DNA of 61,418 nucleotides, filler included, from Candidatus Babelota bacterium (GCA_017999075.1; 10 parts of 10 records of this genome joined end to end with filler, not necessarily neighbours in it), one strand, 5' to 3'. Positions 9,571 to 61,133 are shown, counted from the first letter of the whole stretch. A program made the numbers and translations. The notes: generated by a model from the sequence alone, not told the origin.

Positions 9571-12199
9571 AATAAATTCCGTATTTCCCTAAAACCTTCA
9601 AATCAGAATTTTTCGAATTAAGATACCTGTCATTCCCTGATTTATCAAAAAATACGGCTATACTTCCGAATTCACGCAGTACAAAATATTCGCCGAATCC
9701 TAAATTTTTCGAAATCGAATAGTAGCCGTCATCTCCCGATTCATCCACAAAAATTCCTATTGCAGTTGTTATTGCTCCGCCATTCCCGAGATGTCTCTGA
9801 TTATAAATATCATCGCCGGATTTATCATATAATAATCCAAACGACACATCGTGACCGCAGCCTTGACCTACTTCCCAATTATTATATTCATCATTGCCTG
9901 AAAAATCCATAAGACAGCTTATGCCAAGATGAATTCCGGAACCTTGAGAATATCTGTGAGCAACATATTTATCATCGCCGGAATAATCTATAAGACATCC
10001 TATTCCCATCCAATAAGAAGCAGCCTGACCGTAAACATCAGATTTATATAAATCATTTCCTTCGTAATCTATAAGCATTCCCAGTCCACCAGGAACATAT
10101 GGGCGGATGCCATATCCACAACCCTGGCTCATTGTTATTGAATTAGTATAATATCTTATAGAATCAATAATTCTGTTGCCGCTTAAATAAAAGTCGCTGC
10201 CTTTATAATCAATTAATATCCCGTATCCTTTAACCGAACCAAATCCCTCACAATATGCTCCGCCGTTATAAACATCATTCCCGTTCATATCATCAAGTAT
10301 AGAAACTCCAAACAATGCAGCGCCAATTCCATAAAGTTCACTCTGATAATTATCATTTCCGGATATATCGCTTATCACACTAATTCCAAAATATGACGAA
10401 GCCACAGAATTATTTTTTCCGAAATACCTGTCTTCACCTGAATTATCAAACAAACAGGATATTCCGAAAACAGTTGAACCAAGATCAAAATAAGTATCTG
10501 AAATATAGTTGTCATTCCCTGAAAAATCTATATAAACAGAAATCAATTTTTTTTCATCAGATGAAGCTATTTTATTTTTGTAAAAATCGTCGCCTCCTAA
10601 ATCAAGCAATATAAAACAATCTGAATTAGCATGATAATTATCGGAAGTTCCGGCAATTATTATTTTCCCTAATCTCGTATTTTTTTCAAATAAAATATCT
10701 TTTTCAATCAATTTTTTATCAATTCCAGAAAAATCATATTTTCTTATTTTTTCAGATATTATAACAATTTTATACGATATTTTTTTTAAGTCAGTCAAAT
10801 CAATTTTATCAAGAATTTTTTTTAATTTCATATTGTCTTTATCATTATCGTCTGAACTTTTAAGTTCTTCACGCATATTCATTTTTAACGATTTTCCCGT
10901 ATTTGAAAAATTATTCAATATATTTTCTTTTAAAAAAGAAAATTCGGTATCCGCCAAACTTTTTTTAAATTTTTCAAAACACTCTGCGTATTTAACAGAA
11001 TATCTGTAAATTTCATTTAAATCATTCTTTAATGTTTCGGGAAAATAATCAGGCAAATCTATCTCGGCTGCCGCCTCTGTAAATTCACCGTATTTTTCTT
11101 CAACCGGTATTTTATCCAATAAAAATACATTATATAATTTTTCAGATATACTCCCTGAATTAATCAGGCTATCGGATATAATGTTAAAACATTCTGGCGT
11201 TTCAATAGTATTTTGAAATAATTTCGTAAATACCGGCAATTCAATAGTATCGGGATTTTGTCTGTAACTCAAATTAAAATCATTTTCTTTCAGCATCATA
11301 TAATCAAGGACACCATTTATATTATCAGGATTTGAAAAAAAATTTCCAGAAACAGTATTTATACTATTTTTTTTCTCTTCGATTTTAGTTAAAGGAATCA
11401 TTTTTTCTTTTACTGTTTCATTTTTTACATTTTCACTATTTTCCTGTTCAACTGATTTTGAAAATGTGTCGTTAAAATTATTTAAAATTACCGAGTTGTT
11501 GTTCCCGGCAGAAATGCTTATATCAAAATTATTTTTTATAAATAAATTGTTTTTTATTACTGACCTGTAATCAAACCATAATTCCACAGCGTTTCCCGAA
11601 TTGTTAAAAAAACAGTTTGAATCAACGGAAGTATTGCAATGCAGCATTTGTATACCGTCATCTTTGTTTGAAAAAATAGAATTGTTTTTGATTAACGCTT
11701 CAGAATTATAAATTTTAATTCCGTCTATTTCATTATTTTCGATTATATTATCAATAATCTGCCCGTTAAAAAATGAAGCATATATACCATAAGGTTTATT
11801 GGAAGATATTATATTTTTTCTTACAACCGCGTCTGAATTCGATAAATATACCGCATTTGCATACCAGTCTCCATTTGCTCCTCGAATAATTAATTTTTCT
11901 ATTGTTCCAGAACCATATTTTAATAAAACAGGCTTTTCAAAATCTAAAGGTTCAATTATGACTTTTCCTTCTTCTTCCGCAGTTATGCTGACACCGTCTT
12001 TTAATTCTATATTGAGTTTATATGTTCCAGGCAATAAAAAAAGAGTATCTTCACTTTGCGCATATTTTATTTTATCGGTAGTGGTGGGAGAAATTTCTAT
12101 TATTTGTCCGGCGCATAAATAACTGCAGGTTACAAAAAATACTGTTACAAAAAAAAACCACCTTTTAATAAAGGTGGTTTTAAAAAAAACTGAATCCAT
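9560..12199 (-). CDS. Secreted protein with an N-terminal right-handed beta-helix (NosD-like) and C-terminal DxxGxDxY/Gly-rich repeats
   Basis: Signal peptide; LLPGTY followed by N/G/I-rich helix turns; about 12 repeats such as DLGGDDFY, DFSGNDNY, DYSGDDKY, DKSGDDIY. Confidence 0.75.
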   Translation of the reverse strand: MDSVFFKTTFIKRWFFFVTVFFVTCSYLCAGQIIEISPTTTDKIKYAQSEDTLFLLPGTYKLNIELKDGVSITAEEEGKVIIEPLDFEKPVLLKYGSGTIEKLIIRGANGDWYANAVYLSNSDAVVRKNIISSNKPYGIYASFFNGQIIDNIIENNEIDGIKIYNSEALIKNNSIFSNKDDGIQMLHCNTSVDSNCFFNNSGNAVELWFDYRSVIKNNLFIKNNFDISISAGNNNSVILNNFNDTFSKSVEQENSENVKNETVKEKMIPLTKIEEKKNSINTVSGNFFSNPDNINGVLDYMMLKENDFNLSYRQNPDTIELPVFTKLFQNTIETPECFNIISDSLINSGSISEKLYNVFLLDKIPVEEKYGEFTEAAAEIDLPDYFPETLKNDLNEIYRYSVKYAECFEKFKKSLADTEFSFLKENILNNFSNTGKSLKMNMREELKSSDDNDKDNMKLKKILDKIDLTDLKKISYKIVIISEKIRKYDFSGIDKKLIEKDILFEKNTRLGKIIIAGTSDNYHANSDCFILLDLGGDDFYKNKIASSDEKKLISVYIDFSGNDNYISDTYFDLGSTVFGISCLFDNSGEDRYFGKNNSVASSYFGISVISDISGNDNYQSELYGIGAALFGVSILDDMNGNDVYNGGAYCEGFGSVKGYGILIDYKGSDFYLSGNRIIDSIRYYTNSITMSQGCGYGIRPYVPGGLGMLIDYEGNDLYKSDVYGQAASYWMGIGCLIDYSGDDKYVAHRYSQGSGIHLGISCLMDFSGNDEYNNWEVGQGCGHDVSFGLLYDKSGDDIYNQRHLGNGGAITTAIGIFVDESGDDGYYSISKNLGFGEYFVLREFGSIAVFFDKSGNDRYLNSKNSDLKVLGKYGIYYDK
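12149..12181 (-). terminator. Probable intrinsic terminator downstream of fliD, overlapping the first codons of the next gene
   Basis: Perfect 12-bp stem AAAACCACCTTT/AAAGGTGGTTTT with a 4-nt loop, followed by a U-run on the minus strand. Confidence 0.6.
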
Positions 12200-14856: not shown

Positions 14857-17800
14857 TTATTTTATCACTAAAATCTTGCCTATTTTCTTTTCTTCTCCTT
14901 TTTCAAGCATATAAATATATACGCCGCTTGCAACAGATTGCCCATGATCGTTTTTCCCATCCCAAATAAATCTGTATTGATTCTGACCTGTAGTATTTTC
15001 AGATATTATCTGACCTGTAACTGTAAATATCCTTAACCTTGTTCCAGGCTGAACATTATCAAATATAACATTATTATGACCTATGCCTGAATTCGGCTTA
15101 AACGGGTTCGGATAAACTTTCACATTACCCAAACCAAGATTCAAACTTATATTTGCTCCGAAAACAGAATATATTGAAAAATGATTTATTCTTACAGAAA
15201 CAAGTTTATTTATAGGATCATTAACGCTGTTAGTGACTATTTCCCATTGATTTGAATTTTCATTCAGCCAATAAAAATTCAAACTTGTTACAGGCATACC
15301 TTTAAATAAAGGAGAAATCGTACCGTCAACTATCAGATCATTGTCGTCATCAGGATAACTTATATACAACTGAATATAATTTGAATCAAAATTAGTAAGT
15401 TTTGTTCCATCGCTTTTTTCAAAATTAAATCCTTTTGTTGTTTCAACTAAATTTGTAATTGTTGATAACGGAACAAAATGTGTTAATTTTCTTATAGTTT
15501 CATTTGCCTGAGCTATTTGAGCTTTTATAGTTGAACTGAATGATAATGATTTTTCAAGTTTAACTTTCAAATTCGGATCAACATTCATAAAATACATATA
15601 AAATATTTCGTAAGGTATCACTATCATCGCATACGATTTTAAATAAGTTTCACTTACAAATGTAATAGGCGGGAATGGAGGCAACTTACTCTTTTTCATA
15701 AACAATTGAGTTTCAAATATTTTATTTTGAAAATTAATCGACACCTTTGTCATAGTATCAATGGCAGAATTAAGTTTAAATTCAGCTACTCCATTTGTAA
15801 TAGCAACACTGGAATCAACAAAATTAAGTTTTGATGAATTCAATGTTACCGTATTCCCGTCAAAACAACTTATTATACTTCCTTCATAACTTATCAGATT
15901 AACAAATACAGAAGTTGTACCTGAATTAGTTTGTGTCCATACTTTAAGCTGAGGTATATTGTCAGTCGAATAAATTTTAGTAACAATAAGACTGCTTTGA
16001 GTCATATCGCTTTTATTTGTAGCATTATCTTCCATCTGAATATAATATACATAATTTTTTTCATATTGAGCTGTATCATCTGTAAAATTAGCCGATGTAG
16101 TAGAACCAAGATATATTGGCAACGCCTCATTTTCTGTTAATCTGAAAATATTATATTGTTTAAAATCATCTCCGTATAATTCGTCTGACATATCAGGTTT
16201 GGACCATTTGAACGTTATTATAGGTTTTTCAGAAATAGCGTCAATAACTTTAGTTATTGTTCCTGAGTCAACAACTGGCGGATTATCCAAATCGCAATAA
16301 ACTGTTATTGTATCATAACTTACATTTGTATATTCATCTATTATTTTTACAATTAAAACATTTTCAGTTTTAACTAATAAATTATATGACAACTGTATTT
16401 CAGAGTTCCACTGATTATCATTTAAAATAACAGATGACTTATAATTATTATTTACATATATTGTCACCGTATTCCCGTTATCTGCCGAAGAACTTCCTTT
16501 AAGAAGCAGGGTAATAGAATTAGTATCATATTTTGAAACAGAACTTGTTATTGGATACAAAAATTTAATATTTACAGAATCATTATATTTTATAATAATT
16601 GTATCATAATCTGTTAATCCGTTAAATTTAGAAATAAGCTGCGCTGTCAAATAATTATTTCCTGAAGATAAATTAATGTCATTAAATTCAAATCCACCAT
16701 TTTTAATCTGAATATTTTCTGAAGTTAAATAAATTCCGTTAACAAATAATTTCACCGTATCACCGGCAAAAGAATTATATGAAATACCGCTTATTTTAAT
16801 TAAATTAACATTAGTACAGATGTTATCATTAGGATAGAAAATATCAACATCTACAAGTTTAATATAATTTACCATTATAGTGTCGAATTTTATTCTATTA
16901 AATTTATCTACAAGTTTTACTGCAACACTATCGCCAAGACCTGTAAGTTTAACTGTTCCGCTCCAGTTACCATTAATATTATTTAAAACATATTCAGATT
17001 GTTTAAACGAATTAACATAAAATTCTATTTTGTCGCCTGTATTAACATCATAAGAAGTTCCTGATATCATAATATATTCCGAACTTGTATCATGTAAATC
17101 TACAGGAGAAACAATTTCAATATAAGGATTATCAAAATAATTTATTGTAATATAATCCGTATCATATCTGCCGAACCGGTCTTTTACTAAAATACTGATG
17201 GTATTAGATTGCGATGATAAAAAAGCATTCAGCGTAAACGAACCGTCAATTGAATTTAAAACTGAACTTCCTGCTAAATTACCGTTAACATAAATATACG
17301 TTGTGTCGCCGTTTCCTGTGGATTTTGTAAATCCGGAAATATTAATTGAAGAATTATATGTATCATAATTTAATCCGGAATTTACAGGATTATTTATAAC
17401 AACATCAAGTTCCGGATAATAATATATTATTATTGTATCAAAAGCAGTTCTGTTAAAATTATCGGTTAACTGCAATACAATTGTATTAAATCCTGAATTT
17501 ATTTTTATATTATTAATTAACCAATTATCCGAATATCTGTTATTTATAACATCTTTTGAATCAGAATATAAAATTCCATTCAAATAAATAACTGCAAAAT
17601 CATTTTCTCTAACAGAAACAGTTGTTCCTGATATGGCTATAGTAGAAACATTGGTTTCATAATAATTATCCTGAACCGGCGAAGTTATTGAAACAACAGG
17701 TAAATCCAAATAATTCAGAGTAATCGTATCGTAATCTATTCTTCCAAACTTATCTGTAAGGGCAACATTAATTTTATCGTTTAACCCAGATATATTGCAT

Positions 17801-20800
17801 GTTAATGACCAGTTTTCATTATATGAATTTAAATTAACAAAATTTTGTTTTATGCCGTTAACAAATAATTCTATCGTATCATTCCCGTTAATATTCAACG
17901 ATGTACCTGAAATAATTATGTTTGTCAAACAAGTATCTGTATTATCTTCAGGCATAATTATTTTCACATCTATATCAGGCAGATAATAAATTACAATAGT
18001 GTCATACGAACAATTTGCCACTTTAGGTTTCAGCTGGAGCAGCAATATATTTTTCCCTGGCTCCAATTTTCCATTCAATATACCTGACCATTCTGTATCA
18101 CTCGACAAAATAAATTTCGTCAGAAAAACAGAATCAGAATTTATTGTATCCGATTCGTTATTCATTCTATAAACAAAAATAGAATCTCCAGTTACAGAAT
18201 TAAATGAGGTTCCGCTAAACATTATTGAATTTGAAAATGTATCAATAACATTATCGCACGGCGACTTTATTGAAATTATAGAATATCCTAGATATTTAAT
18301 TATCGACGTATTATATCTTGAAACACCGAATTTATCAGTAAATTTTACAACTATGCTGTCTCCGGCTCCTGCTAAACTTACTGTGCCTGACCAGGTTCCG
18401 TTCATTGAATTTATATTCGAAACAGAGCATAAGGATAATGTATCTCCATTGTAATACCTGATAAATATTTCTATTGTATCTCCATTATTTGAATTATAAC
18501 TTGTTCCTGAAACATTAATCATTTGAACTGCCGTCTCATAATTATCAACAGGCTCGATTATTGACACAGAAGGATTATCAAAATAATGAACTGTTAAACT
18601 GTATGTGTCGAATCTGTTTAACCCGAACCTGTCGTTTATTACTGCATAAACAGTATTTTGCTGAGAAGTCAAACTTGCCGTACCGCTGAATACATTTGAT
18701 ACACCGGTTAAAACCTCGGTATAATTCAAAACATTTCCTGTATAAATTTTTATAATATCTCCTGCACCTGCATTTGATAATGTTCCTGAAATATTTATGA
18801 TTTTAACATTAGTATCGTAACCTCCGAATTGAATAAATTCGATAGGATTTGTAACTGCAATACTTACTCCGCCATAATAATTTACAATAATAGTATCATA
18901 AATTATTCTGCCGAATCTATCAGTTAATTTAGCAACTATTGAATCACCAAAATTTGACAGCACAACAGTTTCAGCCCATATTCCATTCAAATCAGTTAAA
19001 TTAAATTTTGACTGATAAACTCCATTCACAAATAATTCTACTGTATCTCCTATTCTTGTAAATTCTGTTGTTCCGGAAATAATTATGTTTTTAAAAGAAG
19101 TATCATAATTTGACAATGGACTTGTTATAGCTAATTTCGGATATTTGTAAAAGTTAACCTGAACCGTGTCGTAACTTGTTTGTCCGTATCTATCAATAAA
19201 TTTCACTATAACACTGTCAGCATAATTTGATATAGAAACAGCTCCTGTCCATATACCATTCATTCCGATATTAACAACATTAGTCATAATTTGAGGAACA
19301 AATAGATTGTTTACATACAACATCACAGTATCGCCAGTATGATTATATTTAGTGGTTCCTGAAATTTGAACTATACTTGCATCAGTATCAATAATAACAG
19401 TTTTAGATGGAGAAGTTATAGCTAATGTTGGATTACCAAAATAATTTACAGTAACCCGCGAATATTTGAATTTTCCATCATAAAACCCCTGACCTGAGTA
19501 AATATATGCTACAACATTATTTACAGTTGTATCAAATGAATATGTAAATGGTCCTAACTTTACATTTGCGATATGAGTTAAATTAATATAGGTATCAAAT
19601 GATCCGCTATCAGAAGATAGAATATATGATGCCGTATCTTTACCATTTACAGTTAAATAAATAATATCTCCTGACCTGGTATTATACGTAGTTCCGCGAA
19701 TTTGTATTCCGGTTATATAAGTATCACTATTATTCACTGGATATGCAATCTGTATAGATACATTTCCTGAATCAAAATATTGTAACGTAATAGTATCATA
19801 AGCTATTCTTCCAAAACCATCTGTCAACTTAATTGTTAATTTATTATTTCCGTCAAGTAATGGAACTAAATCACATTCCCAATTCCCGTTGCGGTTTAAT
19901 AAAATATAAGTATCCGGTACTATCTGATAATATCCATTTACAAATACTTCTATGGTATCTCCCTGTCTTGAATTATTTGAAGTCCCTGATAAAGTGATTA
20001 TTCTTATATATGTATCATAATCAATTGAATCTGATGTTGTCGGATATTTTATTTTCACAGACAAATCAGGATAATAATTTACAGTTATTGTATCATATGC
20101 AATTGAATTAAAGCTATTGATGAGTTTCGCGGTTATAACGTTTATTGTATCATTTAAATTAATTTGAATGGAAAAATTATCTTTAAATTTTGTTATTGAA
20201 TATTTAGTATCATTCAATATTCCATTAATAAAAATTTCTACTGTGTCATTTGATACAGCATTAAACGTTGTTCCGGAAATAATTATATTTTTAACAAATG
20301 TATCATATAAATTTATTGGGGTGGTGATTCTAATAGATGGTATTCCTATATAATTTATTACCACTGAACAATTACTCGTCCTGCCAAATTTATCAGTTAT
20401 AACCACGAATACTGTATCATTGTAACTGTTTAAATTAATTCCATTAAAGCTCCATGAGCCGGAATCAGAAATAATGTTAGTAGTTCCTTGCTTATATGGA
20501 TGACCTATTTGTTCAACATATAATTCTACCGTATCTCCTGATCTTGTAAAACCTGTAAAACCTCGAATAGTAATTAAAGAATTATTAGTGTCACATTCAG
20601 TACTAGTAGGATAACTTATATAAATCAGCGGAGACGATAGGTAATTTATTGTAACCGTATCATAATAATTTCTCCCAAATTGATCTGTCAACTTAACCAC
20701 TACGGAATCATAATAACCATTCAAACTCACACTTCCAGACCAATTTGAATTCAAAGAAGTCATATTTATTGAATTGACTAGTATATTATTTACAAACAAC

Positions 20801-21321
20801 TGAATAGTATCATTTTTCTGAACATTTAGACTTGTTCCAGATATTGTTAAATAATTTATTGAAGTATCATACAATGTTACAGCAGGGTCGGTAATTTCAA
20901 TAACAGGCATATCAAAATAACTTATCACTGTAGTATCTTGAGAAGAAAGTAAATTAGGCATTATAGGATTAATAACAACTTTTATTATATCATTATATCC
21001 AGTCAAAACTGCACTTCCTATAAACGTACCGTTATTTGTATTTAATGTATAAACCGACTGCAACATTTCATTTATATATATTGCCACTGTATCTCCGATA
21101 AACGATTTATTAGTAGTTCCTGATATAAAAATAGTTTTTGTTTTTGTGTCACTATTATTTAACGGTGAAACAACTTTCACTATTGATTGATAATAATAAT
21201 TCACTGTTATTGTATCATAATATGTTCTTCCGAACTGATCCGTAACTTTCGCTGTTATGCTGTCTTCCTGCGCTGTTATATGCGCTGTCCCTGTCCACGT
21301 TCCGTTCATGCCTGTTATTAC
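14857..21321 (-). CDS. Giant surface protein with many ~95-aa Ig-like repeats and a C-terminal T9SS type-A/FlgD-Ig-like sorting domain; 5'-truncated at the contig end
   Basis: Repeat unit ITxP...DT...ISGT...GDTVxLxVNG...WSG...DxFGR..YDTITVNY; NHFSIY; C-terminus VYPNPF...IFTVTG...WDGKN..G..VASGVYIY. Frame stays open into the spacer. Confidence 0.88.
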   Translation of the reverse strand, partial: VITGMNGTWTGTAHITAQEDSITAKVTDQFGRTYYDTITVNYYYQSIVKVVSPLNNSDTKTKTIFISGTTNKSFIGDTVAIYINEMLQSVYTLNTNNGTFIGSAVLTGYNDIIKVVINPIMPNLLSSQDTTVISYFDMPVIEITDPAVTLYDTSINYLTISGTSLNVQKNDTIQLFVNNILVNSINMTSLNSNWSGSVSLNGYYDSVVVKLTDQFGRNYYDTVTINYLSSPLIYISYPTSTECDTNNSLITIRGFTGFTRSGDTVELYVEQIGHPYKQGTTNIISDSGSWSFNGINLNSYNDTVFVVITDKFGRTSNCSVVINYIGIPSIRITTPINLYDTFVKNIIISGTTFNAVSNDTVEIFINGILNDTKYSITKFKDNFSIQINLNDTINVITAKLINSFNSIAYDTITVNYYPDLSVKIKYPTTSDSIDYDTYIRIITLSGTSNNSRQGDTIEVFVNGYYQIVPDTYILLNRNGNWECDLVPLLDGNNKLTIKLTDGFGRIAYDTITLQYFDSGNVSIQIAYPVNNSDTYITGIQIRGTTYNTRSGDIIYLTVNGKDTASYILSSDSGSFDTYINLTHIANVKLGPFTYSFDTTVNNVVAYIYSGQGFYDGKFKYSRVTVNYFGNPTLAITSPSKTVIIDTDASIVQISGTTKYNHTGDTVMLYVNNLFVPQIMTNVVNIGMNGIWTGAVSISNYADSVIVKFIDRYGQTSYDTVQVNFYKYPKLAITSPLSNYDTSFKNIIISGTTEFTRIGDTVELFVNGVYQSKFNLTDLNGIWAETVVLSNFGDSIVAKLTDRFGRIIYDTIIVNYYGGVSIAVTNPIEFIQFGGYDTNVKIINISGTLSNAGAGDIIKIYTGNVLNYTEVLTGVSNVFSGTASLTSQQNTVYAVINDRFGLNRFDTYSLTVHYFDNPSVSIIEPVDNYETAVQMINVSGTSYNSNNGDTIEIFIRYYNGDTLSLCSVSNINSMNGTWSGTVSLAGAGDSIVVKFTDKFGVSRYNTSIIKYLGYSIISIKSPCDNVIDTFSNSIMFSGTSFNSVTGDSIFVYRMNNESDTINSDSVFLTKFILSSDTEWSGILNGKLEPGKNILLLQLKPKVANCSYDTIVIYYLPDIDVKIIMPEDNTDTCLTNIIISGTSLNINGNDTIELFVNGIKQNFVNLNSYNENWSLTCNISGLNDKINVALTDKFGRIDYDTITLNYLDLPVVSITSPVQDNYYETNVSTIAISGTTVSVRENDFAVIYLNGILYSDSKDVINNRYSDNWLINNIKINSGFNTIVLQLTDNFNRTAFDTIIIYYYPELDVVINNPVNSGLNYDTYNSSINISGFTKSTGNGDTTYIYVNGNLAGSSVLNSIDGSFTLNAFLSSQSNTISILVKDRFGRYDTDYITINYFDNPYIEIVSPVDLHDTSSEYIMISGTSYDVNTGDKIEFYVNSFKQSEYVLNNINGNWSGTVKLTGLGDSVAVKLVDKFNRIKFDTIMVNYIKLVDVDIFYPNDNICTNVNLIKISGISYNSFAGDTVKLFVNGIYLTSENIQIKNGGFEFNDINLSSGNNYLTAQLISKFNGLTDYDTIIIKYNDSVNIKFLYPITSSVSKYDTNSITLLLKGSSSADNGNTVTIYVNNNYKSSVILNDNQWNSEIQLSYNLLVKTENVLIVKIIDEYTNVSYDTITVYCDLDNPPVVDSGTITKVIDAISEKPIITFKWSKPDMSDELYGDDFKQYNIFRLTENEALPIYLGSTTSANFTDDTAQYEKNYVYYIQMEDNATNKSDMTQSSLIVTKIYSTDNIPQLKVWTQTNSGTTSVFVNLISYEGSIISCFDGNTVTLNSSKLNFVDSSVAITNGVAEFKLNSAIDTMTKVSINFQNKIFETQLFMKKSKLPPFPPITFVSETYLKSYAMIVIPYEIFYMYFMNVDPNLKVKLEKSLSFSSTIKAQIAQANETIRKLTHFVPLSTITNLVETTKGFNFEKSDGTKLTNFDSNYIQLYISYPDDDNDLIVDGTISPLFKGMPVTSLNFYWLNENSNQWEIVTNSVNDPINKLVSVRINHFSIYSVFGANISLNLGLGNVKVYPNPFKPNSGIGHNNVIFDNVQPGTRLRIFTVTGQIISENTTGQNQYRFIWDGKNDHGQSVASGVYIYMLEKGEEKKIGKILVIK

Positions 21322-55394: not shown

Positions 55395-56750
55395 ATGGAC
55401 AATCAAATGAATATGTCAGATAATAAAAATAATGTTACCCCAAAAAAAAATCAGTCAAACCCTGCAACTGATTCATTAAAAAAAAATAATAAACAAATTG
55501 ATATAACAAAACTTACCGATTCAAAAAATTATCAAAAACTTGTTAAATATGCCCGAATTAATAATAACGTAGTAACTATTGACGCCGTAACGGAATTTTT
55601 ACCAGGAATTGAGCTTGATGAAATAATTTTTTTATTAAAGCAGGATGGCATTGAATTAATCGACGATTCCGAAATTCAGGATGATGATTCGGCAAATGAA
55701 ACAGAAGATTCAGAATTAAAAGAAAACCCGTTTGTACAGGATTTAATTAAAATTTATTTAAAAGAAATCGGAAAATATAGTTTACTTACTCCTGAAAAAG
55801 AAAAAGAATATTCCGATGAGTTACAGGGATACAAAAACAGCATAATAAAAATCCTCGAAACAAACAATATTAAAAAACCTTCATTCGATGAAATAAAAGA
55901 ATATTTTTTCAAACGGGATCTTAAAACAATAAAATCAATGTTTACAAAGAATTCAAATTGTTCTGAAGATGTTTTGAATAAAATTTTCAAATCAATAATA
56001 GATAAAATGAAAATATACAGCGAAATACGTACAGCTTTTACAGAAGCCAATCTTCGTCTTGTCGTAAACATAGCAAAAAAATATTTAAATCAAGGGCTGC
56101 CTTTTCTTGATTTAATAAATGAAGGCAACCTCGGATTATTGACAGCCATAGAAAAATTTGACACAAAATTCGGATATAAATTCAGCACTTATTCTTGCTG
56201 GTGGATAAAACAAAGCATTCGAAGAGCTTTAGTTGATAAAAGTAAGAATATACGCCTGCCTGTGCATATAGCAGATTTAATTTCAAAATACAAACGCACA
56301 AATTCCAGGCTTTTATTTGAATTAGGAAGGACTCCCAGTATTGAAGAAATTGCTTCGTCTATGCAATTAACTCCTGAAAGAATAATCCAACTAACCCTTG
56401 CTGCTCAAGACATAACCTCCCTTGATATATCGGCTAACGACGAACAAAGTTCTATTGCGGAACTTATTGAAGATGAAAGCGCTCAAAATTCATTCAACAA
56501 TATTGACATAAAAGATTTAAGCAATACAATAAATAATCTGCTTAAAGACTTTAATGAAAAAGAGCGCGCTGTTATTTGTTATAGATTCGGACTGAATAAC
56601 TGTCAGCCTATGACTCTAAATGAAATAGGAGAAAAAATGGATTTATCAAGAGAGCGCGTACGTCAGATTCAGGACAAAACAATGATAAAACTCCGCAAAC
56701 TTCTTGAAAAAGATAAATTTAAAAATTTTACTTCACCATATAAAACTTAA
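55395..56750 (+). CDS. Sigma70-family factor (RpoD/RpoS-like, probably group 2)
   Basis: Region 1.2 YLKEIGKYSLLT, NLRLVVNIAKKY, DLINEGNLGL, KFSTYSCWWIKQ, IRLPVH, SRERVRQIQ. Confidence 0.92.
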   Translation: MDNQMNMSDNKNNVTPKKNQSNPATDSLKKNNKQIDITKLTDSKNYQKLVKYARINNNVVTIDAVTEFLPGIELDEIIFLLKQDGIELIDDSEIQDDDSANETEDSELKENPFVQDLIKIYLKEIGKYSLLTPEKEKEYSDELQGYKNSIIKILETNNIKKPSFDEIKEYFFKRDLKTIKSMFTKNSNCSEDVLNKIFKSIIDKMKIYSEIRTAFTEANLRLVVNIAKKYLNQGLPFLDLINEGNLGLLTAIEKFDTKFGYKFSTYSCWWIKQSIRRALVDKSKNIRLPVHIADLISKYKRTNSRLLFELGRTPSIEEIASSMQLTPERIIQLTLAAQDITSLDISANDEQSSIAELIEDESAQNSFNNIDIKDLSNTINNLLKDFNEKERAVICYRFGLNNCQPMTLNEIGEKMDLSRERVRQIQDKTMIKLRKLLEKDKFKNFTSPYKT

Positions 56751-57106: not shown

Positions 57107-60100
57107 GAAGATCATGATTGAATAAATAAGTATTTTTTTCTTTATTATTTCCAATAAAATGAAGAAAATTATTGTCGCAGAATTTTTTCATTGCAGAGAA
57201 TAAATTTATTTTCAGTCTCATTTTTTTTGATATATACTCAATGACTTCAAACTTGAATTCTCTTCCTGCGATGGCTGCAAATGACAAGATTAATTTTTCA
57301 TTTTCAAAAAATTTGTCGAATTGGCTTATAATAACAGAATTTACCGAATCAGGAATTTTAGAATTTTCTAAAACGTTTTGAGAAGAATTAATAATCTGTG
57401 AAATGAAAAACGGGTTGCCTGAAGTTTTTTGATAAATTTCAAAAGCGTATTTGTTTGAAATATTAGAATTGATATTCAAATTTTTAATATATTGTTTCAT
57501 TTCGGAAAAAGTAAATGGTTTTATATCGATTTTAGTATATATCCGATTGTCGCAATCATTGATGAAAATATTTTCAGGCCGTTGAGTCATAATAAAATAT
57601 AGTTTTTTTATATTTTTTTGATTTTTGTTATGTTTTATTAATTCCTGAAGAAGTTCAAGAGAAATTTCATCAATCCAGTGAATATCTTCTAATATTATAA
57701 GAACCCTGTCTTCTGCCAATATAAAAAATAATTCTATTATTGACTGAAAAAATTCTGATTTATTGTTTTTGCTGTCATGATTGGAATATTCATCAGAGTT
57801 ATCTTGAATTTTTATATCGAGCAGGTTTGCTATGAGCGGAATGCATTTTAATAAGTATTGTTTTTGAATCGCCAATAATGATTTTTTTAAATCATGACCG
57901 ATTTTTTCTGTTATTAATTTTTTTAGTAACTGCTTCCACATATAGAATGGAACTGAGGAAAGATGAAGCGAATATCCTGCTGAAAAAATTTTAAATCCGT
58001 TATTGATAAATATTTTTTGTATATGACGGACAAAAGAAGATTTCCCTGTTCCAGCCTGTCCGATTATGTGAATAAAATACGGGAAAAAATTTTCGTTATA
58101 TAATATTTTTTCTACAATTTCTGTTTCATTTTTTCTGCCTAAAAATATAGTATAGTCTTTTCTTAAAATATTTTGAGAATCTTTTTTTCCTATTAATTCA
58201 AAAAAATCATATTTTTCTTTTATTCCTTTCAAGTAAGCATATTTTTTTTTAAACTTAAAAAGTTCTGAATGTTTTTCAGCAATGTCAGAACCGCAGTATA
58301 TTTTATCTTTCGGAGCAATAGACATAAGTCTTGCTGCAATATTGACTACATTTCCCATGACAGTATATTCTTTTCTGTTCAAGGAACCTATCAGTCCTAT
58401 GAAAGCATTACCATAATTTATTCCTGTTTGTTGAGATATTCGGCATTTGCAAATATTTTTTTTACATTTGGTTCTGATTTCTGAATTTATTTTTTTTATA
58501 GCATCTCTCATTTCAATAGCGAACCTCAATGTGTTTTCGGTAAAGTTATCGTAACACACTGGCGCCCCGAAAATTATTAAAAATTTTTCTCCGGAATGAG
58601 ATATATCGCTGCGCAGAAATTCTCCTTTGTAAGCTGTTGTAATATCAATTAATTTTTCAAAATAGCGTTTAACAGATGATTTTAAATTATCGCAAAAATG
58701 TTTTTCATTCAAACTTATCATGTCTGAAAAACCAGAGATATTTATGAATACAACTGCAATATTTCTGTTTACGGAAAGCAGATCGTATTTATAATTTAAA
58801 TTTATTATGCTTGATAAAACAGCTGAAGGAATAAACTGAAATAATTTAAAACATAATTCACGGCATTTATTTCTGTCAATCTCAAAATCAGAAATGCGTT
58901 CCATGCTGTTTTTAAATTCTTGAGGATAAACATAATTAGAATTATTGTTTATGTAAAAAAAGTCTTTTGATCCTTTTACCTGAATTAAATTAAATTGAGG
59001 AGGTAATTCTATAGCAGATTTGCGTGAAATTACGATTTCTCCTGATTCTGCCATTTTTTCCGCTTCAGCAAGTTTAGATAAAGTTTTTCCGCAAATATAA
59101 TATTCTTTTCTGATATTTTTATAATTCAATACAGTAGATATTACTTCTCCGCTGCTTATACCTATATGAATATTAAAAACATATTTTTTTTTAAATATTT
59201 CAATAGGCTGTTTGTTTTTTAAAAAGTCAATAATCTTCAATGCCGTAAATGCAGCATTTATTTTTGCCATTGATTTGTTAGTTATATTTTCAGGATACAT
59301 AGCCATTAAAGAATCTCCGCCGAATTTTAATATAGAACCGCCATATTCATTTATAATGCTGATAAAATTAGTGAAAATAGAATTTATCGTGGTTGTAAGA
59401 ATTTCAGCAGCTTGATCTCCGGAGTTTTGTAATTCATTTAATAATTTCGTGAATCCGCTAATATCTGAAAACAAAAATGTGTAATGAACTTTTCTGAAAT
59501 CGAATTTATAATTATTCGGTTTTTTCAGTAAAATAATCAGCAGATAACTTGGAATAAATATTTGTAAAATCCCAAACAATTTTTTATAGTCATCGTTAGT
59601 TTTCAAGTTGCTGAAAATTTCAGGTAAAAATTCATGGCGTTCATTATGGCTGCTTAAAAGAGATATTCTGGTTTCAGATTGAGTTGAAAATGAACTGTGA
59701 TATGACGGCATATCTGATTCTAAAAAGTTTTTAAAATACGGAATAGATTCATTTGTTTTTTCAGTGTTATAAAGACAATCTCCGATCAAAAACAGAACGT
59801 CTCTATTTAATCTTTCATTACTTTTTAAATAAGATAGAGCCGTTTCATATTCGCCGTACCACCATAGTTTCACTCCTTTAAAAAAGTTACAAGATGACTC
59901 TGAAATATTTATTTTTTGATTAATCGGAATACCAAGTTTGTTTAATGTAAGTTTTTCAATATCTGCTATAAGTTCTCCATATACACGGCGTAAAGGGATA
60001 ATATTTTTGAGTGAATCGTCGAGTTCAATAAAATACCTGTGTTCCGGAAGATATGCTTTGGTCAATCCGCATAAACCCTGAATAGTTTTTAAAGAAATGG

Positions 60101-61133
60101 AATAATATTCGCAATAATTTTTAAATGTCAGATTTTGATAATATACTTCTTCTATGCTGCCGTAATTTTTATAAATTTTTATCATTTCGGCAATTTTAGG
60201 TTCTGAAACTTTTATTGTCCTGCATACTGATTCAATAGCCATTTCAGGGGATATGTAAAACGGTTCGGCAATTGTAACAGGATGTGATTCTCCTTTTTTT
60301 TCTTTTTTTGATTTAATACCGGCAATATATTCCGGCAATTCTTTATGAAGTGAAATTTTATCTAATATTTCTGAGCATACAGAGTAATAAGTTTCAGGAA
60401 AATTCATTTTGTTCATCTCAAAATTATTTTTATAATAAAAACAATTTGAACTGTATGAAAAATTAGATGCGTATTTATCCGCTGTTTTAATATATATGTC
60501 GTGAATGAAAGATGATTCGAAATCAGGGTAATGGCAATCATTTGTAAGAACAGGATTGCAATTATATTTTTTGCACATTCCGGAAATAAAAGAATTTACT
60601 TTTGACTGCATTGCGATGTCGTGGCCTGAAACTTCAGGATAAAAATCTTTACCGAATTCTGAATAAAATTTTTTGAAAATAAGTTCGGCTTGTTCAATGT
60701 TTCCTGATGATAAAGAAATCCCTATTGGTCCTCCTATGCATCCTGATAAAACGATAAGTCCTGCTTTCCGTTCAATTAATTTATTTAATTTTACTACAGC
60801 ATATTTTGGCGGAAGAAAATTATCTGTCCATGCATCTGAAACGATCCGGACAAGATTAAAAAAACCTTCCAGATTTTTTGCTAAAACAACAAGATGGGAA
60901 ATCTTATTGTTTTTATTATCTTCAAAAGAAAAATATAATTCACATCCCAGAACAGGAATTATATTGTTCTCAATGCAGGAAAAGTAAAAAGGCCAAACAG
61001 CGGCCAAAGTCCCGTGATCAGTTATCCCCAATGCTTTATGATTATTTTCTTTTGCAAGTTTTACTGCACTTTCAATGCGTAAAACACTGTCGGAAAAAGA
61101 ACCGAAAAAATGATTATGCAAATGAAAATACAT
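57107..61133 (-). CDS. Multidomain fusion: DnaE-type PHP + DnaE remnant + TPR + two class III cyclase domains + STAND/AAA NTPase; 3'-truncated
   Basis: HLHNH/TDHG/GCE/SHL/SGC/NDCHY; FSDISGFT and KFGGD; EYTVMGNVVNIAARL; FLGRKNE, GQAGTGKS, LEDIHWID, GNPFF, FNHDL. Confidence 0.9.

Follow-up and report, generated by a model that had tools for sequence, protein, structure and literature searches.

A polymerase-less DnaE module with a complete set of PHP metal ligands, joined in one genus to a cyclase-STAND-TPR protein

In C-family polymerases, an 'active' PHP exonuclease site is recognized by the metal-ligand motif HHDHEH[C/H]DH (PMC12926913). The thumb of E. coli Pol III alpha carries a basic patch of K439, R443 and R447, and R506 lies near the DNA (PMC7584608). 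In the X family, noncanonical PolX proteins that are dead as polymerases have been shown to be 3'-5' exonucleases (PMC9226535), and PolX-like proteins without the entire polymerase domain have been reported (PMC12926913). Of two C-family surveys, that of 2013 excluded any sequence whose polymerase site was not intact (PMC3919608), and the other discarded truncated sequences before trees were built (PMC12926913). Therefore, a family of DnaE-like proteins without polymerase would have been filtered out. We found no description of the family reported here in the literature covered, which did not extend to subscription papers; the supplements of PMC12926913 and PMC3919608 might list such sequences.

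The window, i.e., the whole stretch of 61,418 nucleotides analysed here, consists of ten contigs of a Candidatus Babelota bacterium (GCA_017999075.1) joined by N spacers. The source genome comprises 3.8 Mb with 30% GC in 594 contigs. One ORF in the window combines a DnaE-derived N-terminus with a cyclase, and we compared it with intact replicases, PHP proteins and cyclases.

A DnaE without palm 1 at the N-terminus of a fusion protein

The fusion ORF lies on contig C511 (57107-61418), where it begins at window position 61133 on the minus strand and leaves the contig at 57107 (Table 1). Contig C294, which shares the last 227 bases of the ORF except for one mismatch, brings the TPR tail, giving a fusion protein of 1858 aa in all. 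The identical domain order was found in a single reading frame in P0003 (1765 aa, without the first ~95 aa) and in genome G001, in which a 1900-aa frame spans an inserted element. Pfam recognized PHP, two cyclase stretches and AAA_16 in the whole ORF, with weaker matches to NB-ARC and NACHT in the STAND region. The match of the short TPR unit to Pfam TPR was weak (E ~0.05), and the unit is common to about half of the mini-DnaE family described below.

Table 1. Features of the fusion ORF in window coordinates
Feature	Position	Strand	Basis or remark
Fusion ORF	57107..61133	-	1342 aa inside window, cut by contig end
DnaE-type PHP domain, aa 1-262	60348..61133	-	Pfam PHP E 1e-30; best matches DnaE
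Short linker, aa 263-281, in place of ~130 aa of palm 1	60291..60347	-	spacing; model
DnaE remnant, aa 282-402: thumb + second palm segment	59928..60290	-	profile-profile, model
Short TPR unit, aa 410-490	59664..59906	-	model helices, TPR fold matches Z 10-11
Tandem class III cyclase domains (ADCY10-like)	58179..59501	-	Pfam Guanylate_cyc, two stretches
STAND-type P-loop NTPase, then helical domains	57108..58145	-	Pfam AAA_16 E 2.5e-14

A sequence-only reading of the window had proposed that a DnaE-like stretch follows the PHP domain. This segment alone gave no Pfam match at E<=10, no remnant match among PDB sequences and no tblastn match to the genome's own dnaE, and its match to a DnaE HMM was weak (E 0.024). 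An eight-sequence family profile, with P0003, P0004, the same-genome paralogue L004 and genes in G001, G002 and G017 among the relatives, aligned colinearly with DnaE 427-557 over 124 columns in a profile-profile comparison (probability 97.4%, E 1.5e-11). At E<1e-3, the profile matched 92 of 112 DnaEs and none of the 112 reversed DnaEs; the DnaEs had been gathered by a search with aa 1-560, in which most matched through PHP. The structure search of the segment that the sequence-only reading had proposed also placed DnaE first. A model of aa 275-410, predicted from a family-only alignment of 26 family rows, reached pLDDT 94.8; DnaE occupied all 13 top rows listed by Foldseek (best E 7.9e-5, TMq 0.73) and the top five places among 48,161 chains (130-132 residues aligned, E. 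coli 420-559). The Z scores in the latter comparison were modest (5.6-7.2), and the matches span the entire segment.

The remnant corresponds to about residues 425-551 of E. coli Pol III alpha, and the Mtb domain limits place it as thumb plus second palm segment (PMC5636811). The view that the thumb was kept and the palm removed is therefore correct for the thumb and only half correct for the palm, as the second palm segment is also kept and palm 1 alone is deleted. Similarly, the interval first assigned to the remnant, 59928..60350, contained the right segment and at its 60350 end took in the ~20-aa linker, which includes much of a helix at 262-275 in the predicted model. The PHP 'EM' motif and the thumb helix are 59 aa apart in the fusion protein, compared with 186-201 in DnaE; the fusion protein lacks ~130 residues of palm 1 together with all three polymerase aspartates. 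As noticed earlier, the region that bears GRGS and PDxDxD has thus shrunk to ~20 aa. GRGS and DxDxD are absent from the fusion protein and from all 68 family rows checked, a palm-1 HMM was negative, and no Asp follows LGI at the position of the third catalytic Asp (KxDFLGL), again as the sequence-only reading had it. The HAxG motif of DnaE is replaced by PD/PE in the remnant. The DnaE features present in the fusion protein are the N-terminal DnaE-type PHP, the thumb and the second palm segment; no fingers, HhH or OB domain was found in it. Judged by its sequence, the fusion protein is not a DnaE polymerase because the catalytic palm and fingers are lacking. As predicted, the genome has a separate intact DnaE, which keeps all polymerase and PHP motifs and to which the remnant is 16% identical; it also encodes PolC, in two contig pieces. 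These results show that the remnant stems from a duplicated DnaE, of which it represents the thumb and the second palm segment, palm 1, the fingers and the C-terminal domains having been lost. We regard the DnaE origin of the mini-DnaE module as practically certain; the profile, the models and family members with an eroded palm all bear out the idea that the N-terminus came from a real Pol III alpha.

The PHP domain keeps all nine metal ligands (H6, H8, D15, H40, E65, H80, C132, D199 and H201) and fits the active motif, and the nine were intact in 58 of the 58 fully covered rows among 69 family sequences, whose kin are not independent. K110-Y111 align with the wedge residues K136-W137 of Mtb DnaE1, and the Y105 position is Ile. 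C-family polymerases accounted for all NCBIfam matches of the PHP region among the 9 of 10 families listed and for all 13 significant or near-significant PDB sequence matches. A model of aa 1-490 (pLDDT 94.8, pTM 0.93), built from an alignment that included three near-DnaE rows, superposed on E. coli alpha 5-558 over 403 residues at 2.8-2.9 A with Z about 39.5; AlphaFold may recall the DnaE layout. In this model, PHP and remnant are predicted to form one rigid ~400-aa mini-DnaE, arranged as in the intact polymerase. Basic residues conserved in the family at 78, 111, 216 and 218 would suit a phosphate-rich substrate. The sub-clade of the window protein has lost several of them (I78, Y111, A218), and therefore its substrate may differ from that of the core family.

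Distribution, selection and neighbours of the family

When 1.84 billion representatives were searched with a profile, 150 matches were listed, and P0003, P0004 and P0002 were treated alongside them. Palm 1 was missing in 41 of 151 among the matches listed; apart from four near-DnaE proteins and a few fragments, these make up a coherent family. Scanning of genomes, with the best 80 of 487 kept, gave at least 31 further loci, and in the phylum of G017 a family gene was present in 8 of 26 genomes. Named carriers belong to Elusimicrobiota, Ca. Tritonobacter, Euphemobacter, Erginobacter, Auribacterota/Aureabacteria, Lindowbacteria, Mcinerneyibacteriota and others. After six loci were dropped as duplicate or partial and identical ends were removed, the final set held 69 sequences, many of them close kin. 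In a quick, unrooted PHP tree without a PolC/PolX outgroup, 32 family rows formed one side of a branch with SH-aLRT 99. Members are labelled 'PHP domain-containing protein' in databases or mislabelled as DNA polymerase III alpha, and an Atlas search with a stand-alone member returned only generic PHP clusters, under 0.9.

The family is chromosomal, occurs in candidate phyla, and most members stand alone or with TPRs: in 35 of 68 rows, at most 45 aa follow the remnant (some of these rows may be partial), 29 have a tail of 46-260 aa, mostly TPR (the trimmed window row and P0122 included), and 4 have a longer one. All five carrier genomes tested also have a full-length DnaE frame. Within the host lineage, both the long and the short form occur in G001, only the short one in G002 and neither of them in G003. 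In four members (P0125, P0133, L079 and L083), palm 1 survives in an eroded state that has neither GRGS nor DxDxD, with a spacing of 172-181 aa; that of P0125 still matches PF07733 (E 2e-21). Elsewhere in the family, the spacing from EM to thumb is 97-99 aa in two members and 47-67 aa in the rest. The thumb is shortened to 17-32 aa with most helices lost in 24 of 67 rows, and what is kept despite this trimming are the flanking strands, the P380 motif (36/36) and a basic residue equivalent to R506 (55/68). Eroded palms, deleted palms and trimmed thumbs can thereby still be seen as a series within the family, and this series fits a stepwise loss in an order that we infer.

dN/dS, the comparison among homologs that the sequence-only reading had suggested, was below 1 in all 14 pairs (PHP 0.06-0.28, remnant 0.05-0.61), indicating purifying selection, and in 11 of the 14 the PHP had the lower value of the two; dS was near saturation in distant pairs. 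Between the window protein and its relative in G001, the values were 0.17 for PHP and 0.27 for the remnant.

Neighbours of the family differ by clade and are housekeeping genes, i.e., argC/ackA, bioY, rnhC, gcvP and tpi, as well as what we take to be tsaB/rimI-like genes. No DNA-repair operon is conserved around the family loci; an RNase HIII gene lies upstream in 13 of 31 loci, in one clade only. A transketolase gene and unrelated genes in convergent orientation border the fusion locus of the host, and neither an adjacent effector gene nor a defence island was seen on C511 or C294, both of which are short. None of 80 viral loci, the best of 557 found with core-clade patterns, was a family member. 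Six viral loci above the score threshold proved to be full-length DnaEs with palm and fingers and were not counted as members. A metagenome scan for neighbours of the sub-clade yielded one family member in 80 loci, from the core clade, the rest being swamped by DnaE. We also asked whether the module takes the place of nfo, xth or a DEDD nuclease, which was not supported. Across 26 incomplete genomes of one phylum, no exclusion pattern appeared: nfo was found in 5/8 carriers vs 3/18 non-carriers, xth in 1/8 vs 3/18 and the DEDD nuclease in 6/8 vs 16/18. Host DnaEs keep their own PHP motifs; therefore, no missing proofreader is replaced by the mini-DnaE.

The best PDB match of aa 545-985 was human soluble adenylyl cyclase, ADCY10 (E 2e-16, both domains). 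D557 and D607 are present in C1 and R841, T924, N931 and R935 in C2; presumably, the former are the metal aspartates and the Thr/Asn/Arg of C2 the complementary catalytic residues. Walker A (1025-1032) and Walker B (1147-1153) of the STAND NTPase are both intact. By these residues, the C-terminal part, with its TPR tail on C294, is an ordinary sAC-like cyclase-STAND-TPR protein that would make cAMP by likeness. In G001, a multi-copy element interrupts the gene and comes with a 9-base duplication; its end motif was matched 27 times, compared with 0 matches in the control. Among other cyclases, the nearest, P0308, has no mini-DnaE module fused or among its nearest upstream genes, which points to a recent fusion, and no PHP domain was listed for the other 11 cyclase matches. 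The sub-clade with the window protein comprises seven rows (SH-aLRT 99 in the quick unrooted tree). It includes the cyclase fusions of the window protein, P0003 and G001, the stand-alone sister P0123, and P0004, P0126 and P0128 with STAS/PilZ-like tails, which are a lead only (Atlas score 0.85; 9/9 structure rows PilZ clusters, TM under 0.5).

Possible roles of the mini-DnaE

We read the remnant as capping an active PHP rather than as the main point of the protein, because all nine ligands are kept under the tighter constraint on PHP, the thumb patch has drifted and the predicted packing is DnaE-like. The emphasis of the sequence-only reading on 'keeping the non-catalytic surface' was thus misplaced, and it passed over what, from the alignments, is the central feature: the conserved part is the PHP with its metal ligands, while the basic residues of the thumb have drifted.

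Overall, we favour, with somewhat more confidence than doubt, an active PHP acting as a zinc-dependent 3'-end nuclease or phosphoesterase with a structural thumb cap. That the PHP is active and the remnant structural seems to us quite probable; that nucleic-acid 3' ends are the substrate is an even call. A DnaE was duplicated and lost palm 1, fingers and C-terminal domains; the remnant would have stayed because it is predicted to pack on the PHP barrel in the way seen in the complete polymerase, giving a rigid unit. The working part would be the PHP with its putative full three-metal site, which most likely hydrolyses 3'-terminal phosphodiester or phosphoester bonds of short DNA/RNA ends or oligonucleotides. 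It may thus represent a proofreading site set free from replication, like the PolX-like proteins. The stand-alone and TPR forms are ordinary chromosomal genes, and in one sub-clade the module is joined to signalling domains, which in this genus are the observed sAC-like cyclase-STAND-TPR. The fused module probably couples nucleic-acid ends or nucleotides, as its input, to the production of cAMP, the weakest step of the proposal. PHP phosphatases and RNases use the nine-ligand motif as well. The preference for a 3'-end nuclease comes from descent from an Mtb-type proofreader (PMC5636811) and from the PolX parallel (PMC9226535, PMC12926913). Counting against this explanation are the PHP phosphatase and RNase fold matches, the lack of a repair operon and of nuclease exclusion, and the retained R506 equivalent.

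The PHP may instead have been re-tooled for signalling nucleotides, as a phosphodiesterase for cAMP, c-di-GMP or pGpG, or as a pyrophosphatase pulling the fused cyclase forward, so that synthesis and breakdown would sit in one chain. The sub-clade's cyclase fusions and candidate STAS/PilZ-like tails, its altered pocket and the element-interrupted gene in G001, which fits an accessory role, speak for this, as does a report of the E. coli alpha PHP as a pyrophosphatase (PMC4822814). However, about half of the family ends shortly after the remnant (some maybe partial) and most others carry only TPRs, P0123 stands alone, the closest cyclase lacks the module, and the literature matches listed held no PHP cyclic-nucleotide phosphodiesterase fused to a cyclase; we consider this alternative unlikely. 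A thumb kept as a DNA-binding surface, as had been suggested, would let the STAND cyclase sense DNA duplexes or forks. The fusion protein and 44 rows still have thumb helices of full length, the residue equivalent to R506 is mostly basic, and the E. coli thumb wedges DNA strands (PMC7584608). Against this, the equivalents of K439/R443/R447 are E/E/R in the fusion protein and are basic in only 19, 28 and 17 of 68 family rows, compared with 112, 111 and 112 of 112 DnaEs. All three are basic in none of the 44 full-thumb rows, the thumb tip is deleted in the trimmed rows, and the net charge of the remnant is -1 in the fusion protein and -10 to -13 in short paralogues. The basic DNA-binding residues thus appear to have drifted, which makes a DNA-binding thumb doubtful, and we give this account a small chance.

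The remnant had also been proposed as an integrated decoy for replicase-targeting proteins; phage proteins trapped in this way would set off the STAND cyclase, which would act as an immune receptor. STAND-TPR architectures are receptor-like, the fusion is recent, and the cyclase domains match Pycsar PycC models (best E 1e-20). These PycC matches cover the generic cyclase fold only, though, and PADLOC gave no match for the 4/4 cyclase-free members. Moreover, a remnant so far from the host DnaE in sequence is a poor mimic, purifying selection acts on the family, a decoy does not need the conserved active site, and the neighbours are housekeeping genes, with a transketolase gene at the host locus and no members among the 80 viral loci kept. 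We found no support for the decoy and deem it very improbable. As for a decaying dnaE pseudogene or a mis-assembled chimera, suggested by the fragmented assembly and an ORF cut at a contig end, the independent copies of the fusion in P0003 and G001 refute it, and the 69 family sequences, purifying selection and intact active site leave it a negligible probability.

Beyond the favoured 3'-end nuclease or phosphoesterase, one may speculate, with more doubt than belief, that the replicase proofreading site was cut out more than once as a PHP-plus-thumb unit, and that one lineage domesticated it as a nucleotide-processing or DNA-end-sensing input gating the sAC-like STAND cyclase or STAS/PilZ-like domains. 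If true, this would link a replication enzyme directly to cAMP and c-di-GMP signalling.

Comparison with known systems

The mini-DnaE shares the nine-ligand PHP and, by prediction, the arrangement of thumb and second palm segment with DnaE1/Pol III alpha (E. coli 2hnh, Taq 2hpi, Mtb 5lew), whereas it has no palm 1, catalytic aspartates, fingers, HhH or OB; the fusion protein further differs in its lost thumb basic patch and in the added TPR, cyclase and STAND domains. As a natural protein of ~400 aa, the mini-DnaE could allow a PHP exonuclease to be studied without polymerase. RNase AM and the 3',5'-nucleoside bisphosphate phosphatase are similar in that a trinuclear PHP barrel acts without polymerase (Z 16-17), but they are far more distant than DnaE (Z 35-41) and have no thumb/palm remnant. 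In ADCY10 and bacterial cyclase-STAND-TPR proteins such as P0308, the tandem C1/C2 cyclase, P-loop STAND and TPR tail are alike, whereas the fusion protein has an N-terminal mini-DnaE and TPR module and Arg at the sAC K334 position; here, a replicase module has been recruited into cyclic-nucleotide signalling proteins. The PolX-like proteins of Actinobacteria (PMC12926913) and noncanonical PolX (PMC9226535) likewise retain the PHP site after loss of the polymerase domain or its function. They belong to the X family, another PHP lineage in other taxa, and noncanonical PolX often lies beside NHEJ genes, whereas the mini-DnaE is of the C family and has no conserved repair neighbour. Since its PHP matches are C-family polymerases and the attached remnant is DnaE, the mini-DnaE, as far as its sequence tells, is not PolX-like by descent; it is PolX-like in design, as a C-family parallel.

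Fusion gene surroundings and orthologue

The nine spacers in the window (21322-57106) are N runs flanking a 12-base linker that join separate contigs; therefore, no gene across a spacer is a neighbour of the fusion gene, and this applies, for example, to the sigma-factor-like gene at 55395-56750. The fusion gene converges at its 3′ end with a gene encoding a 730-aa protein (L005 3847-6039), for which Pfam gave no match. An ORF of 2150 aa was also observed on host contig C499 (window 14857-21309).

The orthologue of the fusion gene in the related genome G001 was split by an insertion-sequence-like element, which is multi-copy, has inverted ends and is accompanied by a 9-base duplication. The end motif of this element showed 27 matches, almost all at contig ends. 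Within the cyclase C1 domain of the orthologue (L030 6886-11115), a 23-aa unit occurs three times in tandem; this triple repeat may be real or may be an assembly slip.

Features outside the window and their locations
Feature	Location	Remark
Insertion-sequence-like element in fusion orthologue	L029 near 10000-10044; L030 near 11130-11182	G001
Second family gene, same genome	L004 6751-8514 (G000:C219)	PHP, remnant and TPRs only
RNase HIII-type gene upstream of family gene	L061 5057-5971 and 12 related loci; L238 735-1652	
Palm-less PHP-plus-thumb protein	L310 3604-5043	Much nearer DnaE than family
Palm-less PHP-plus-thumb proteins	P0157, P0158, P0180, P0247	Much nearer DnaE than family

Other family members and their neighbours

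The second family gene of the host sits between argC and ackA, and this synteny is kept in G001 and the related genome G002. Because its listed ATG leaves out the first PHP metal ligands, its true start must be further upstream. A conserved gene of 346 aa (L004 4525-5565) lies upstream of argC and is present in G001 and G002 as well; it had no match in Pfam. In one clade, the gene immediately upstream of the family gene is of RNase HIII type (RNase_HII and DUF3378), an adjacency for which a ribonucleotide-repair link and plain synteny are both possible explanations.

Relation to DnaE and PolC

The host, which carries outer-membrane genes (OmpA-like, DUF748), has next to DnaE1 a PolC that was spread over two contigs (L007 1793-4864; L008 3-1319). 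Judged by eye, the exonuclease insert within its PHP looks degenerate.

The palm-less gene of L310 is preceded by one uncharacterised gene and an MBL-fold-like gene, whose fold we presume from its sequence. In the PHP tree, the other four palm-less proteins, each a single sequence and some possibly assembly errors, were nested within DnaEs, which suggests that the PHP-plus-thumb unit was excised from DnaE independently in these lines.
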